A stretch of 64,000 nucleotides of DNA from an uncultured Clostridium sp. (GTDB taxonomy: Bacteria > Bacillota > Clostridia > TANB77 > CAG-508). The stretch spans positions 6,233 to 70,232 of the forward strand of contig USEX01000003.1 in the NCBI GenBank assembly GCA_900553755.1, read 5' to 3'. The notes under the pieces are model-generated. The model was given only the letters and a program-made list of their open reading frames with translations, searched no databases and was not told the DNA's origin. This document shows, piece by piece, positions 5,186 to 58,736 of this stretch (positions are counted from its first letter, which is position 1; the number at the start of each line of letters is the position of its first letter). Position numbers and translations under genes: made by a program.

Positions 5186-5431
5186 CTAACAGTAGTTTCT
5201 TTCTTTTTTGCATATTTTATAAATTATTGTTATTACTAATATTATTCCAAGCACTATTGCTAGAACTATTACTGCTGCTAATGCTGCCAATATAGTTTCG
5301 CTTATAGCTGCTCCTATTATAGCTCCTATTACTCCGAAGAATAAAACTGCTAATATCGCTATTATTAATGCAAAACAATTTCTTTTCTTGCAACATTTTT
5401 TCTCAAAGTAGCAATTTTCTTGTGGCTCCAT
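5186..5431 (-). CDS. Small membrane protein with two TM helices flanked by Cys-rich tails (hypothetical)
   Basis: 81 aa from the ATG at 5431, with an AGGAGG RBS 8 nt upstream. Hydrophobic core is ALIIAILAVLFFGVIGAIIGAAI...AAVIVLAIVLGIILVITIIY. Cys-rich ends are CYFEKKCCKKRNC and CKKERNYC. Has its own terminator. No family recognised. Confidence 0.5.
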   Translation of the reverse strand: MEPQENCYFEKKCCKKRNCFALIIAILAVLFFGVIGAIIGAAISETILAALAAVIVLAIVLGIILVITIIYKICKKERNYC

Positions 5432-23375: not shown

Positions 23376-24272
23376 TTAGCTTTTTAAAGAATTAAAATGT
23401 ATTCCCTTCGCCACTAAATCTATTTTTACAACATTCATAGCTGTTTGTTTTTCTATTTCTTTTTTTGTTTTCTCTCTAAAAGTTTTTAAAGTTTTTATTA
23501 TATTATTTCCATAGTTTAGCACAGCCTCCATGTATATAGATATTCCGTCCCCATAGTTTTCTACTCTAGTTCTTGTAACACTGTATATTTCAGGCATTCT
23601 GTTTGCTACATTTTCTGCTATTTGTCTAAATACGCTATCAGATATAGTAAACTTTCCTAAATAGCTAAATGTTGGTCTTATCATAGATTTCTCTGATATA
23701 TATGGATTTTCTCCCATTCCTTTTGATTTAAATATTTGCAATGGATCTAATAAATATCCAGAAAAGTCTTTTTTTATCTCAAAGGTTGGCACTGGTATAA
23801 CATGTTTTCCCTGTGTAACACGTATGTTTCTAGCTTTTTCCATTTCTTCTTCAGTTGCCACATCATTTATATATATTGTTTTCTCAAATGGTGGTAAATC
23901 CAGATTTTCTCTTATCTTTTCCACCATTTTATCAGATGTGCCTAATACCAATAAGCTATCTGGCTTATATTTTTTAAATGCTTTTTTCATTTCATCCTGC
24001 TCTTTTTTCTCTAGAAAAAGTGCATGCTTTACAGTCTCGATTTTAGTAGGCGCTTTTTTAGCCGAAGTACCAGCAAGCACTTCGTTTTCATTAATAAATA
24101 AACCATCGTCTATTATATAATGAATATCGTTTGTACTAGCTACAAGCTGAGCTCTATAGCTTTTTCCTGTTCCCGATGGTCCTACAAAAGCATAAATTTT
24201 CATTTTATGTTCTTCAGATTTATTGTTATTTGGTATTTTTAATTTAATATACATATACAACCTTCCCTGCAT
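23376..24272 (-). CDS. P-loop NTPase fused to an Asp23/Gls24-like C-terminal domain (hypothetical)
   Basis: Walker A VGPSGTGKS near the N-terminus. The last 110 aa or so (ISDSVFRQIAENVANRMPEIYSV...VKIDLVAKGIHF) resemble the Asp23 family. The start is uncertain (24272, 24254 or 24203). Confidence 0.55.
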   Translation of the reverse strand: MQGRLYMYIKLKIPNNNKSEEHKMKIYAFVGPSGTGKSYRAQLVASTNDIHYIIDDGLFINENEVLAGTSAKKAPTKIETVKHALFLEKKEQDEMKKAFKKYKPDSLLVLGTSDKMVEKIRENLDLPPFEKTIYINDVATEEEMEKARNIRVTQGKHVIPVPTFEIKKDFSGYLLDPLQIFKSKGMGENPYISEKSMIRPTFSYLGKFTISDSVFRQIAENVANRMPEIYSVTRTRVENYGDGISIYMEAVLNYGNNIIKTLKTFREKTKKEIEKQTAMNVVKIDLVAKGIHFNSLKS

Positions 24273-25797
24273 TTAAATTTTGCATTAATTCATCTTTAGA
24301 ATAATTATATTTTGCCTTGATTTGGCTAATTATACTGTCTGAGTCTACTCCCTCATTGAAAACTAAAACTATACCTTTAGACATATCTTTATCTTTCATA
24401 ACATTTTCAATATTTTCAATACTTGCGTTGCTACTTCTCATAATATAAGAATCTTCAAACTCTGTGAATAAATATATATCATCTAAGAATCTTAAATTAT
24501 TCTCATTTATTATATACATAGCTGGCAAATCTGATTTTTCTGCTATTCTTTCAGCTAAATGATTCATTTTTGTGAATGTGAAGTCTAATTTTGTTTTTGT
24601 TACAATTGGGCTTACGATAACTATTACAAAAGTTAATATAGTTACTAACATCGCATCTTTTTCTTTCAATATATTTTTATATAATATGTAAAATGTATAA
24701 ATCAACCATATTGTAGATACTGATACTATTGGCATGAAATATCTTAACTCTTTATATGGAGACATTTTAGCTACTAATAGAAAGTATATTATAGATGGAA
24801 CAAAAATAAGATTTATTATTTTATCTTTTCCCTCTAAATTTTTAGCTTTTTGCTTTAATATTATATATATCAAAATCAAAAGAAGTCCTAAGTTATTTGC
24901 AGCACCCTTTTGTAATATGTAGAAACACTGCCCAGCGTCCACAAAAAGTGAATCTAAATTAAACAAATTGCTTTTTGCTCCAGCTCCTCTGTATCCTCCA
25001 AACATATGGTATAAAGAGTATGGGAATATTGCCAATGATAACCCTGCAGCAATTGCAAAAGTTGCTACATATTTTGCCAAATTTTTATATTGTTTTTTCT
25101 TTATATATTTTACTGCAAACATCACAAATAATACAAACATATACATGATTGTATAATAATGTGTAAGTGACGCCAATAGTGCTGTTGTTCCTATAAAAAT
25201 AAGGTCATTTAGCTTTAACTCTTCTTTATCAAAAATCTTCATGTGTGCATATGTAATCATTAATATGAAAAGATTAGTCAATTCATACATTCTTATGTAC
25301 GCAGTTGTATCTAAAGCTCCTATTGTTAATCCAGTTATCAATGTTGCAAATAATGCTAAAATTTGATTTTTGAAAAGCTTGCTGCAAATCAAATATATAA
25401 ATATACTTGAAAATACAAAGATAACTATATTTAATATAATTCCCGTCCATTTAGTAAAACTATCTATTGTAAAGCTTGCCGCTATTCTTAGTAGCAAATA
25501 ATAAAGTGGTGGATGAACATCATTTTTCTGATTCTCATATACTGCTCTAAAATCAAATTTTTCATCCTCATTTACTGATAAATAATCTATATAATATTTT
25601 TTATTATGCCAATTATCATAAAAATCACTATTATCTGTAATATCTATTTTATCATAATTCATTAAAGCATATGAATATGCTTCATCTATATGAAAATATT
25701 CTTTTCTATTTCCTACATAAATTCTTACAATTACTTGTAGCAATATTATTAATACCATGCAAATTACTACAGTACTTTTCTTCAATTTGTTTTCCAT
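24244..25797 (-). CDS. GT-C fold membrane glycosyltransferase (ArnT/PMT_2-like)
   Basis: 517 aa with at least 10 hydrophobic helices. N-terminal DEAYSY and HPPLYYLLL motifs are typical of lipid-carrier-dependent GT-C enzymes. AGGAGG RBS. Confidence 0.65.
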   Translation of the reverse strand: MENKLKKSTVVICMVLIILLQVIVRIYVGNRKEYFHIDEAYSYALMNYDKIDITDNSDFYDNWHNKKYYIDYLSVNEDEKFDFRAVYENQKNDVHPPLYYLLLRIAASFTIDSFTKWTGIILNIVIFVFSSIFIYLICSKLFKNQILALFATLITGLTIGALDTTAYIRMYELTNLFILMITYAHMKIFDKEELKLNDLIFIGTTALLASLTHYYTIMYMFVLFVMFAVKYIKKKQYKNLAKYVATFAIAAGLSLAIFPYSLYHMFGGYRGAGAKSNLFNLDSLFVDAGQCFYILQKGAANNLGLLLILIYIILKQKAKNLEGKDKIINLIFVPSIIYFLLVAKMSPYKELRYFMPIVSVSTIWLIYTFYILYKNILKEKDAMLVTILTFVIVIVSPIVTKTKLDFTFTKMNHLAERIAEKSDLPAMYIINENNLRFLDDIYLFTEFEDSYIMRSSNASIENIENVMKDKDMSKGIVLVFNEGVDSDSIISQIKAKYNYSKDELMQNLNAGKVVYVY

Positions 25798-25873
25798 TGT
25801 ATCCTCCTAAAATTATTTTGCATACTGATTTTATCATATAATAGCAATAATGTCACTATTTTGAGTGCATAAA

Positions 25874-25897
25874 GAAAAAACAACCTAATAGGTTGTT
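25874..25897 (-). terminator. Terminator after the prepilin/FGE-fold gene
   Basis: AACAACC-TAATA-GGTTGTT hairpin followed by a U-run on the minus strand. The TAA at 25898..25900 abuts the stem. Confidence 0.65.
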
Positions 25898-27187
25898 TTA
25901 ATAATTAAATTTAAGTCCCACTATTTTATCATTAAAGTAGGGCGAGAGCCAAACTCCGCTGCCTCCACTATTGGCGTACTACCGTAGTGGACGGGCACTC
26001 GCCGGACTGCTCGAGCCACTATATGTATATCTACCACCTCTGCCAGTACGGCTATCTGTGCCGCTCATCTCCTGAGTCCATTCTTGGCAATTTCCGGCTA
26101 AGTCGTATATGTTATTCGCTTTCCATGCTTCATTTGAACCAGTAGCTTTCTTTACTGCACTACCATTTGCATTTTTCTCATAATTTCCTGTATTTGCCGG
26201 CGATATTGAATCTTTATAATTTCCCCATGCTGTAGAATTAGTTATACTTTTTTTCTCTCCTTTTTTAGATATAAAATCACATGCTAAGTCCCACTGGATC
26301 CCCCAGATCATCCTGCTTTCTACTTCATCACTTGCATTTAACATTGTACATTTTTTGTATAAATTATACCAGTTTGTATTTGTTAATGTTGTTTTTTCTT
26401 TTTGTACCCCTTCATTTGATAGTTCATATCTTCCTATATAAAATCCTCCATATTTTTTTATGCTATTTATCATATTTATATAATCACTTGTAAGTGTTTC
26501 AGCCATTATCTTTGTACTATCAAATCCTAATACTGTTTTATAATACTCTTCTGTTTTATCATATTTTACTACTATGTCAGGCTCTCTATAACTTGTCGCA
26601 TTTGGTGTACTTCTTGATATAGTTACTGTATCTCCTGTTCTTCCTATAGTTACCTAATTTGTATACATTTTTGTTGTAACTCCTACATCTCCTGATAAAG
26701 CTATTCCATTATTCGAAGTCACATACATACTTGAAAGTACACTTGCTTCCACTGGCACCCAAACCCATTCATTTCCTGCATCATCTTTTATTACTAGTCC
26801 ATGGTCTACTGAATCTTGTGTTGGGGCAGAGTTTCCATTTCCCCATTTTGCATCTCCTGCGTCTATTGGAGTATATCCTCCAGGGATTACTGGATTATTG
26901 GTTCCAGGTTTTTTCCCATTTATCGTTCCATTCTCTTCGGCTTTCGTATTAACTGGAACTTTTGCTATTCCACTCTCTTTTCCATTTTTATCAACCCAGT
27001 CAGCTAAATCGTTAAAGTATTTTTCTTCCTTCGTGTCTTGAGAGGCATAATCATTTACAGCTGTTTTTGCTCTTTTCATTATTCCTCCATTGTCTATTGT
27101 TAGGCTTAAAGTTACTCCAGCTATAATTATTAGCACTACTATTGTTACCACTAAGGCAACCAATGTGATTCCATTTTCTTTTTTCAT
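25898..27187 (-). pseudogene. Prepilin-type N-terminal helix plus FGE-sulfatase/C-type-lectin-fold protein, interrupted by two in-frame TAG codons and a probable 3' frame switch
   Basis: ORFs 26654..27187 and 25979..26506 and the 147-nt gap between them share one frame (hand-translated). N-terminus is MKKENGITLVALVVTIVVLIIIAG. Domain marks are EWVWVPV, GGFYIGRYE, WGIQWD, GNCQEWTQE and RGG. TAG codons lie at 26654..26656 and 25979..25981. AAGGAGG RBS at the 5' end. Confidence 0.6.
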
Positions 27188-27235
27188 TCTTTTATTTCCT
27201 CCTTTTCATTGGTTTTCTCATTTCAAATATTGCTT

Positions 27236-28471
27236 TTATGCAACATCCTTAATTTTTATATCTCTAACGTGGTCTATTTTCTCCCATTTTGTGTCTCTTA
27301 TAAATAAACATTTAAAGTTAATTAATAGCCATGATCCTAGGAATAATGGGTATAAAACCAATCCTTTTATCATTGGCTTTATTGGTCTTTTATCCAACCA
27401 CATTATTATTATTCCAACAAATATTGGTAGTAAAAATGTTGGTAATAAATATCTAATACAATTTACAATTAAATCTGGTGTAGACATTCCACCAAGTATA
27501 TACATAACAAAGTTAATTATTACTAATACACCTGTTAATATAAACATTGGTATACTTCCTATCATATATAAAAGTCCATCAAAATTCATCACTGTTTTAT
27601 GTTCTTTTACAGCTACTGCTAATGGTTTTGTATATTCGCTTAAGCATTGAATATGTCCAACAGTCCATCTAGATCTTTGTGACCAAGATTGTTTAAATCC
27701 TACTGGCTGTTCATCATAAACTATTGCATCTACTGCCCAGCCAACTTTCTTACCTTTTATAATTGTTTTTAACGAGAATTCTATATCCTCAGTTAAAGTT
27801 TTTGTATTCCAGCCTGTTGGCTTTATTACATCAAACTTAACCATAAATCCTGTACCATTTAATAGTGCAGATAAGCCTAAATTATACCTTGCTAAATGGT
27901 AGAATCTATGCATTGTCCAGTAAAATATTGCGTATCCTGCTGAAACCCAGCTATCTGCAGGGTTCTTGATATCTCTGTATCCTTGAACAACTTCTTCGCC
28001 TTGACATAATTTTTTGTTCATTGCTTTTGTAAAGTTAACATCAACAATGTTATCAGCATCAAATACAAAGAATGCATCATAATCAGCATTTTCTTCAATT
28101 TTTTGTTTTAAAAACCATTGCAAAGCAGCACCTTTAGTTTGTTTTGCTGGGTCTTCTTCATGTCTTTCTAATACTATCGCTCCTGCTTCTTTTGCAATTT
28201 TTACAGTATTATCTGTACAGTTATCAGCTATTACATAAATATCTAATAACTCTTTAGGATAATCCTGATTTTTTAAACTTTCTATTAAATTTCCTATTAC
28301 AGCTTCTTCATTGTGTGCAGGCAAAATAGCCATAAACTTGTGATTTTTATCCACAAGTAATGGCTTATCTTTTAATTTTACTAACGAACAAATACTAACA
28401 ACTAATTGGTATAACCAATATATAGTTATTATCCAGACAATTGCCTGTTGTATAATATATAAATATTCCAT
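27236..28471 (-). CDS. Processive family-2 glycosyltransferase (IcaA/PgaC/NodC-like membrane synthase)
   Basis: 411 aa with an N-terminal TM helix, a GT2 core (AILPAHNEE, FVFDADN), a QxxRW motif (QRSRW) and C-terminal TM helices. Confidence 0.8.
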   Translation of the reverse strand: MEYLYIIQQAIVWIITIYWLYQLVVSICSLVKLKDKPLLVDKNHKFMAILPAHNEEAVIGNLIESLKNQDYPKELLDIYVIADNCTDNTVKIAKEAGAIVLERHEEDPAKQTKGAALQWFLKQKIEENADYDAFFVFDADNIVDVNFTKAMNKKLCQGEEVVQGYRDIKNPADSWVSAGYAIFYWTMHRFYHLARYNLGLSALLNGTGFMVKFDVIKPTGWNTKTLTEDIEFSLKTIIKGKKVGWAVDAIVYDEQPVGFKQSWSQRSRWTVGHIQCLSEYTKPLAVAVKEHKTVMNFDGLLYMIGSIPMFILTGVLVIINFVMYILGGMSTPDLIVNCIRYLLPTFLLPIFVGIIIMWLDKRPIKPMIKGLVLYPLFLGSWLLINFKCLFIRDTKWEKIDHVRDIKIKDVA

Positions 28472-57749: not shown

Positions 57750-58184
57750 CTAAATCACCTCTGTCTTTCCACCTAAAGCTTTTATAGCTTCTTCAGCTGC
57801 CTTAGTAAATCTTACAGCTTTTACATTAACTTTTTTATCAAGTTTTCCTGTAGCTAAAACAACTATACCGTCATTAATTTTTCCAATTATTCCTTCTTCT
57901 AGTAAAGTCTCAGCAGTTACATCTTCACTCTTTGATTTTGATAACATTGTTAATGTTACTTCTGTATAATTTTTAGCATGTATATTTGTGAATCCTCTTT
58001 TTGGTAATCTTCTATATAATGGTGTTTGACCACCTTCGAATCCACGTCTTACTCCACCGCCAGATCTTGCTTTTTGTCCTTTATGACCTCTACCAGATGT
58101 TTTACCTAAACCTGATCCAACTCCACGTCCAACTCTTGTTCTTGTTGTATTTTTTTGTGCTGGTTTTAACTCATCTAATTTCAT
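57750..58184 (-). CDS. rplO: 50S ribosomal protein L15
   Basis: [27 protein letters not shown] stop. Confidence 0.97.
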
Positions 58185-58244: not shown

Positions 58245-58736
58245 CTACATTATTTCTTCAGCTTTTTTTCCTCTTTTTTTAGCTACTGATTCTAATGTTT
58301 GCATATTCTTTAATCCTTCTAGTGTTGCATATACAACGTTTCTTGGATTGTTTGTTCCAATTATTTTTGTTCTAATATCTCTATATCCTGCAAGTTCTAG
58401 AACTGGTCTAACGCTTCCACCTGCTATAATTCCTGTACCTTCTGCAGCTGGTTTTAGCATAACATTAGCACTACCAAATTTTCCAATAATTTCATGTGGT
58501 ATAGTAGTATCTACTATTGGAACTTCTATTAAGTTTTTCTTTGCTTCTTCTATAGCTTTTCTTATTGCATCTGGAACTTCTGCAGCTTTACCGTTTCCTA
58601 CTCCAACATGTCCTGCTCCGTCTCCAACAACAACTACTGCACTAAATCTAAAGTTTCTACCACCTTTTACAACTTTGGCAACTCTATTAATAGCTACAAC
58701 TTTCTCTTTTAATTCTGTAGAATTTTCTTCTTGCAC
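58245..58736 (-). CDS. rpsE: 30S ribosomal protein S5
   Basis: [27 protein letters not shown]. Confidence 0.97.

Follow-up and report, generated by a model that had tools for sequence, protein, structure and literature searches.

The closest described systems are the variable proteins of diversity-generating retroelements (DGRs) that belong to the C-type-lectin or FGE-like group, such as BPP-1 Mtd, Treponema denticola TvpA and Thermus aquaticus TaqVP (Pfam FGE-sulfatase and DUF1566 classes). It is known that one genome can hold multiple and remote DGR targets (PMC8144416, PMC6642488), and in gut Bacteroides, DGRs diversify the tip adhesins of type V pili (bioRxiv 10.1101/2024.11.15.621889). 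Lesions are also on record: Schillinger et al. (2012) described nonsense, frameshift and insertion lesions in DGR elements, together with variable regions (VRs) that carry non-adenine changes (PMC3521204). Here, we analyse one gene on the minus strand of a 64-kb stretch of DNA (hereafter the window, 64,000 nt of contig USEX01000003.1 from an uncultured Clostridium sp.). The gene reads as a single long frame broken by two in-frame TAG codons, called TAG#1 and TAG#2 below, for which a first-pass annotation of the sequence had offered amber read-through among other explanations. We conclude that this gene is, in all likelihood, a dormant and truncated member of a DGR-diversified surface-protein family that has in addition acquired one private nonsense change, and that no recoding is involved. 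Its status as a DGR target, the defining feature of the family, had been missed in the annotation.

Translation of the minus strand between 25898 and 27187 gave 430 codons with stops only at codon 178 (TAG#1, 26654-26656) and codon 403 (TAG#2, 25979-25981), the frame closing at TAA 25898-25900. The two listed open reading frames (ORFs), 26654..27187 (177 aa) and 25979..26506 (175 aa), are joined by a 147-nt bridge without a stop. The frame described in the first-pass annotation, open except for two TAGs, was thus confirmed, as was the terminator-like hairpin (25899-25877) said to abut its TAA. With the reconstructed protein as query, 7,337 homologues scored E<=1e-3, mostly 395–445 aa long, as expected of a real gene, and the relatives are single polypeptides, in keeping with the earlier view that the two ORFs are parts of one gene. 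The 430-codon frame matches the nearest intact relatives, P0004 and P0005, which are 432 aa long.

Several lines of sequence evidence identify the family as a bona fide DGR target family. At two related loci, L035 and L036, three elements lie downstream of a family gene: an Avd homologue (NF033474, E=3e-20), a reverse transcriptase (RT; IGNYTSQ...YLDD) and a 143-nt repeat of the 3′ end of the gene, the template repeat (TR). Mismatches between VR and TR fell at template adenines in 24 of 26 cases at L035 and in 20 of 21 at L036. At a third locus, L099, all 21 mismatches were at TR adenines, with none at other bases and no gaps. A similar comparison at L097 was set aside because it had been built on a wrong anchor. 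Altogether, RT and Avd adjoin family members at L035, L036, L049, L097, L099 and L109. The window's own clade was examined by a test that requires no template: adenine occupied 3 of 46 invariant VR columns versus 76 of 154 upstream (Fisher p=3e-8). Finally, a degenerate pattern predicted from the VRs (GGYTCNAAYAAYCCAGCNTCNAAYCG) recovered 29 TRs from metagenomes, many of them with an RT ~430 nt upstream; the same pattern had 0 matches in the viral_contigs scan. One metagenome-assembled genome, CAKOVU01, holds at least 12 scattered family paralogues, consistent with remote or multiple DGR targets. In these related genomes, a DGR composed of Avd, RT and TR would rewrite the last ~45 codons of its targets by adenine-specific mutagenic retrohoming.

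The DGR loci have other recurrent features. At the 29 TR loci (L082-L111), a conserved AT-only hairpin, GATTATATATTTTAAGGAATATATAC, with an 8-bp stem, stands directly 3′ of each TR; in this lineage it probably serves as a structural part of the DGR RNA. Beyond the VR, an imperfect hairpin, GTAGCACTGAAnnCTAGAGCGTGAGCACCAGTG, is common to cis-targets and some remote paralogues (L099, L109, L097, L021, L048) and is a candidate target-recognition signal. This post-VR element was not found in the window, where GATAAAATAGTGGGACTTAAATT... runs into the terminator instead. We also observed a dead DGR (L083:~5313-5338 and L085:5700-6212) in which the RT ORF breaks off after '...MDIKKYFENINK' and runs directly into the interior of the TR, yielding a 170-aa ORF that ends '...NNGSNNPASNRNNNNPTNSNNNIGFRPALILF', apparently by internal deletion.

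What is the origin of TAG#2? This codon is present in all six assemblies compared (the window and five others), whose 3′ ~800 nt are identical, and overall it is common to at least 8 assemblies and two loci. The three closest database proteins (P0001-P0003) are 402 aa long, 97–99% identical, and end '...ASARPLR'. Several features place TAG#2 within a VR: (i) a composition scan revealed a GC island of 54–56% at 25950-26100 versus ~22–35% nearby; (ii) the last ~45 residues are hypervariable among homologues, between fixed anchor residues; and (iii) the VR that flanks TAG#2 shows an NNY codon periodicity, from which the 15 nt around the stop depart. In alignments to four TRs and to the nearest intact relative (L112, encoding P0005), an extra C (25990) directly follows the conserved CGT of 'PASAR', and one nucleotide is lost ~16 nt beyond it. 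Consequently, CAC TAC GGT AGT ACG, the counterpart of TR AAC AAC AAC AAT CCG, is actually read CCA CTA CGG TAG TAC GCC. A 1-nt insertion and a nearby 1-nt loss in the VR would therefore have thrown five codons out of register, so that TAG#2 appears to be the product of a short local frameshift rather than an amber codon set in a clean frame. The 430-codon frame had been called otherwise clean; besides the stretch around TAG#2, this does not hold at the 3′ end, where FGSRPTLMIK, the canonical ending of the family, is read in a second frame that stops at 25921-25923. We also considered a single frameshift from a canonical '...SRPTLIIK' ending as the source of TAG#2, and dropped it because the total length of the window VR is that of the TR-encoded shifted 'RFSSHFNNKV' register, the majority form in the clade, which leaves a local +1/-1 pair.

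The VR of the truncated allele gave no sign of ongoing diversification, being nucleotide-identical in all six assemblies. Nor is the allele confined to one locus. A paralogue beside mreB (P0017, P0021-P0023; L117/L118) holds the 3′ block of this allele, with the truncated VR and its TAG, over 975 nt at 95% identity (L117:10386-11359 and L118:1742-2715 versus window 25922-26898). This second copy stands at an unrelated locus, next to mreB and a gene for an AMP-binding enzyme, and its first ~150 codons are divergent. A shared 3′ block joined to a divergent N-terminal part points to gene conversion between the paralogues. Past the mosaic boundary (codons 165–402), the two copies differ by 4 synonymous and 1 conservative non-synonymous substitutions (binomial p=0.008 versus neutral), and in the 61 codons before the stop by 3 synonymous and 0 non-synonymous substitutions. 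When lineage changes were polarised against two intact orthologues, the truncated branch carried 17 non-synonymous to 21 synonymous changes, compared to 18:25 and 17:18 on the intact branches; this ratio is indistinguishable from those of the intact orthologues. Though small, these counts together argue against long-standing decay. TAG#2 is thus most likely the genuine stop of a shortened, non-diversifying variant, as judged from these sequence comparisons.

We propose that TAG#2 became the fixed stop of a 402-aa allele whose VR no longer varies, that gene conversion placed a copy of the 3′ block at a second locus and that the allele has apparently been kept by purifying selection. The 402-aa form would then be functional, presumably in a surface or adhesin role, and the indels may have caused the loss of diversification. 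Alternatively, the 402-aa allele could already be dead, the loss of Ser178 being the next step in the decay of a plain pseudogene, since the truncation deprives the VR of its final third and the lectin fold of its C-terminal strand. Consistent with such decay, TAG#2 costs ~28 residues that are kept in intact relatives, the VR is frozen, the conserved post-VR element is missing, no DGR lies within the window and disrupted VR frames are frequent among family members (for example L003_11057, L038 and L051). However, neither the five other assemblies nor the second locus carry additional lesions, the divergence between the copies is biased toward synonymous changes even within the VR, and the lineage accumulates substitutions like intact orthologues do. 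Moreover, the family tolerates a wholly different, frame-shifted C-terminus (see below), so the extreme C-terminus may be dispensable. We therefore consider a plain pseudogene unlikely, although it deserves serious weight, and favour a maintained 402-aa allele.

TAG#1 has a different history. Locus L001 (ENA ERZ28565668) matches the window at 99.54% identity over 8 kb and reads TCG (Ser178) at this position, which is its sole difference from the window in the 1,290-nt gene. Four assemblies from other samples (L113, L114, L115 and L116) also read TCG, so that 5 of 5 relatives have a sense codon. On top of the truncated allele, a C-to-A change in this genome alone would therefore have turned the serine codon into a stop, and TAG#1 reads as a private nonsense change, whether a very recent knockout or an error in base calling. 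Aligned with homologues, the two TAG positions thus gave opposite answers, a serine codon at the first and, at the second, a stop that relatives share and that lies in a DGR VR. The earlier suggestion of a very recent pseudogene or a sequencing error fits TAG#1 and fails for TAG#2, which is old, shared and indel-made; the two stops, taken at first for a matched pair, appear to be unrelated events of different origin. If TAG#1 were a sequencing or assembly error, the genome would simply encode the intact 402-aa protein of its relatives, a situation that would explain why this base is the only mismatch to L001 in the gene and why TCG stands in each of the five other assemblies. The base does not lie in a homopolymer (AAATTAGGTAAC) and hence not in a typical error context, but nothing else in the sequence opposes an error, which we regard as improbable without dismissing it.

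Could the two halves be made separately? Both ORFs are present in the ORF list. Separate anchor and lectin fragments had been suggested as products; these would be a membrane anchor of 177 aa and a lectin fragment of 175 aa that starts at ATG 26506. This ATG, the next in frame after TAG#1, has no Shine-Dalgarno sequence upstream, which makes separate expression of the downstream half unlikely. The second fragment would also lack a signal or anchor as well as the first ~50 residues of its domain, and every relative is a single polypeptide. We thus hold a two-product arrangement to be highly improbable.

The remaining proposal was that TAG is recoded, through amber suppression, pyrrolysine or programmed read-through, to give a full-length 430-aa protein, perhaps in a condition-dependent manner. 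Indeed, both interruptions are TAG and the frame stays open downstream to a TAA beside a terminator. However, TAG is not as rare as had been thought: among the stops of 64 non-overlapping ORFs of >=100 aa in the window, 52 are TAA, 9 are TAG (two of which are TAG#1 and TAG#2) and 3 are TGA. TAG terminates rplO (57750-58184, with secY directly after), rpsE (58245-58736), disA and four other long ORFs. ARAGORN detected only a tRNA-Leu(CAA) in the window and no tRNA with a CUA anticodon; no scan was aimed at pyl genes. No other gene in the window is split by an in-frame TAG, and the other same-frame TAG junctions were rejected as recoded genes, being the ordinary boundaries rplO|secY and disA|PPIase. 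Furthermore, TAG#1 is missing from all relatives and so marks no conserved recoding site, and TAG#2 stems from a register shifted by indels. Thus, this organism uses TAG as an ordinary stop, amber suppression is very unlikely, and recoding of this particular gene is the least credible of the explanations considered here.

What kind of protein does the family encode? A prepilin-like helix fused to an FGE-sulfatase or C-type-lectin-fold domain had been read from the window protein; this architecture held at the level of the family, and the window protein's own matches were sub-threshold. N_methyl (PF07963) matched the window protein at E 0.016–0.05 and 36 of 69 diverse family members (best E 1.2e-4). 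The N-terminal motif KKENG|ITLVALVV... provides a Gly at -1 and a hydrophobic helix, but the Glu at +5 of mature pilins was not found, Ala taking its place both in the window protein (G-I-T-L-V-A) and in the family consensus GITL(I/V)ALVVT. Weak PDB matches to this part were the N-termini of MshA and PilE1. FGE-sulfatase (PF03781) matched the window protein at E=0.05 (13.7 bits versus a cut-off of 23.3), P0009 at E=0.0024 and 23 of the 69 members at E<=0.01 (best 9.4e-7), and some members have a precomputed PF03781 assignment. These two Pfam families were the only recurrent ones across the 69 members, and NCBIfam has no model for the family. The best PDB sequence match was the FGE paralogue SUMF2 (1y4j, E=0.037), aligned over NNIYDLAGN..EWT...R..RGG. 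An AlphaFold2 model of P0005, built from a deeper alignment than that of P0009, had a predicted template-modelling score of 0.65 and a confident core, with residues 360–432 (the VR and C-terminus) at a predicted local distance difference test score (pLDDT) <50.

The middle of the same model (~70–110 and ~130–320, pLDDT 70–93) found no significant counterpart in PDB or BFVD (lowest E about 2), and the part that links the anchor to the lectin-like tail may represent an undescribed fold. Separately, P0053, P0062 and ~10 other clusters (610–649 aa) have been called as N-terminal fusions to the HD-domain protein YqeK. In these, an upstream yqeK ORF runs in frame and without a stop into the family gene ('...LIRRGEIG-MKNKGEKGVTLVAL...'), either as a real fusion or as a gene-calling artefact. 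Because the yqeK ORFs are upstream and enter the N-terminus in frame, C-terminal read-through was ruled out as their source.

A number of observations weigh against a dormant, formerly diversified allele and must be set beside the evidence above. First, a repeat finder, low-stringency blastn and an RT-motif regular expression found no TR or RT in the 64-kb window, and 0 of 21 distinct TRs was cognate to the window VR, each showing at least 24 non-adenine mismatches plus gaps. This search covered the window and the 21 distinct recovered TRs. As no cognate TR or RT was found, the DGR role of the window's copy is drawn from family membership and composition. Second, the +1/-1 model was built on non-cognate templates; the exact history of the indels would be as those templates suggest, and a cognate TR with a different codon count could alter the details. 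Third, the case for selection amounts to 5 substitutions in 714 nt, which gene conversion could distort. Fourth, the model of P0009, obtained from a shallow alignment, reached a pLDDT of 35, and Foldseek returned no PDB or BFVD match with E<2 for the P0005 model. The assignment of the lectin fold therefore rests on sequence profiles and the DGR context. Lastly, the change at base 26655 may be either a mutation or an error.

How did the C-terminus come to differ so widely between members? The two family endings, '...SRPTLIIK' and '...RFSSHFNNKV' with variable tails, are two frames of the same DNA. Among 85 close homologues, 57 have the shifted ending and 10 the canonical one. TRs of the shifted class (L084, L086, L088, L094, L097, L098, L099 and L109) end ...AACAAACGGTTCTCGTCCCACT, with a net +1 nt relative to canonical TRs, which end ...AAT-GGTTCTCGCCCTACT or ...ATCGGTTTCCGTCCAGCT, the latter encoding IGFRPAL. 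The cis-targets of the shifted class end RFSSHFNNKVALNxRA before their stop (L099:4321-5460, L109:140-1018 and L097:5901-7043). A net +1 nt near the 3′ end of the TR thus accounts for targets that end '...KRFSSHFNNKV...' with locus-specific tails instead of '...G(F/S)RPxL'. Tentatively, and with somewhat more doubt than confidence, we suggest that a TR with one additional nucleotide wrote the shifted C-terminus into most paralogues in concert, and that in the window's lineage an indel-truncated VR was then fixed at 402 aa, spread by gene conversion and kept by purifying selection. If this is true, the lectin-like fold can do without its last strand, and 'domestication' can turn DGR targets into proteins of fixed specificity.

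The features of the window's copy are collected in Table 1. The gene belongs to a locus (window 24244-28471) with the order pnp, GT2 glycosyltransferase, one or more tandem copies of the family gene and a PMT_2-like membrane protein, in which the number of tandem copies differs between close relatives. There is 1 copy in the window and in L001, 2 in L002 and 3 in L003 and L112. The single gene of the window looks like the product of a deletion or recombination, its 3′ flank matching the flank of the last copy in the tandem arrays. Across the window, 56 of 64 long ORFs are on the minus strand.

Table 1. Features of the gene and its immediate flanks, in window coordinates.
Feature	Position	Strand	Remarks
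Full family-member frame	25898..27187	-	430 codons; product kept in relatives is 402 aa (27187-25982), stop 25979-25981
Shine-Dalgarno sequence AAGGAGG (strong)	27198..27204	-	10 nt upstream of ATG 27187-27185; read directly from the sequence
Prepilin-like N-terminal motif and hydrophobic helix (G|ITLVALVVTIVVLIIIAGV)	27113..27172	-	Ala, not Glu, at +5
TAG#1, codon 178	26654..26656	-	TCG (Ser) to TAG; changed base 26655, C to A on the coding strand
FGE-sulfatase / C-type-lectin-like C-terminal domain (predicted)	25982..26515	-	~residues 225-402; motifs GGFYIGRYE, WGIQWD, NNIYDLAGNCQEWTQE, RGG
Former DGR variable region (putative)	25936..26071	-	GC-rich island, NNY codon periodicity, identical in six assemblies
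Out-of-register stretch	25973..25990	-	MAFFT and pairwise alignments to L112 and four TRs; direct reading
TAG#2, probable stop of the 402-aa allele	25979..25981	-	Spans the GGT|AGT junction
Vestigial tail (YANSGGSGVWLSPYFNDKIVGLKFNY, then stop)	25898..25978	-	26 codons plus TAA; homologous to the shifted-register 'RFSSHFNNKV...' ending of P0004/P0005
Canonical FGSRPTLMIK ending with stop, in another frame	25921-25953	-	Inside the vestigial tail segment
Intrinsic-terminator-like hairpin (AAAACAACCTATTAGGTTGTTTT plus T-rich run)	25877..25899	-	Abuts the TAA; stands where active-DGR cis-targets have the post-VR element

The answer to the amber-recoding lead is negative and ordinary, and a false lead is thereby removed; the case illustrates how a DGR VR can mimic 'unusual' in-frame stops in an AT-rich genome. 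Beyond this, the locus draws attention to a family that is very large and for the most part unannotated, with >7,000 database members and a dozen or more copies per genome, whose members appear to be DGR-diversified surface proteins with a pilin-like anchor in uncultured low-GC Clostridia of the human gut. It also offers two apparent natural experiments, a TR-encoded frameshift of the C-terminus and a truncated, non-diversifying allele on which selection still seems to act. These speak to the extent of lectin scaffold that is required and to the ways in which DGR targets are acquired, silenced or fixed.

How does this gene compare to known systems? Its resemblance to pylTSBCD-dependent decoding, to suppressor tRNA-CUA systems and to TAG-recoded phages is superficial and limited to in-frame TAGs in a long open frame. 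Unlike in those systems, TAG ends essential genes here, the window has no CUA tRNA, and the two TAGs are not conserved as a pair, one of them being private. The lesions reported by Schillinger et al. (2012) were mainly in the RT gene, whereas here an indel pair seems to have struck the VR of a remote target, and, in contrast to their cases, the truncated product appears to be maintained.

Like the type V pilus adhesins of gut Bacteroides, the family would comprise DGR-varied adhesive proteins of gut commensals, associated with the surface or with pili, and with many targets per community. Unlike the type V pilin, its N-terminus resembles the type IV prepilin methylation motif (N_methyl), and it occurs in Clostridia; it departs from type IV prepilins in turn by having Ala in place of Glu at +5, and assembly into a pilus is putative here.

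The closest likeness is to the DGR variable proteins of the Mtd, TvpA and TaqVP kind. As in those proteins, the family carries its VR in the final ~45 codons of an FGE-sulfatase-like domain, and, as in known DGRs, the related loci combine AAC/AAT-rich templates, adenine-specific VR/TR mismatches and the cassette order target-Avd-RT-TR. Unlike known DGR targets, the window's copy lies in 64 kb of DNA that holds neither TR nor RT, its VR is constant between strains and carries indels with a premature stop, and no post-VR element follows it; unlike the known DGR lectin proteins, it matches PF03781 below threshold and its fold is a prediction from sequence. Thus, the kind of system, a DGR target, is known, and what is new is the degenerate member.

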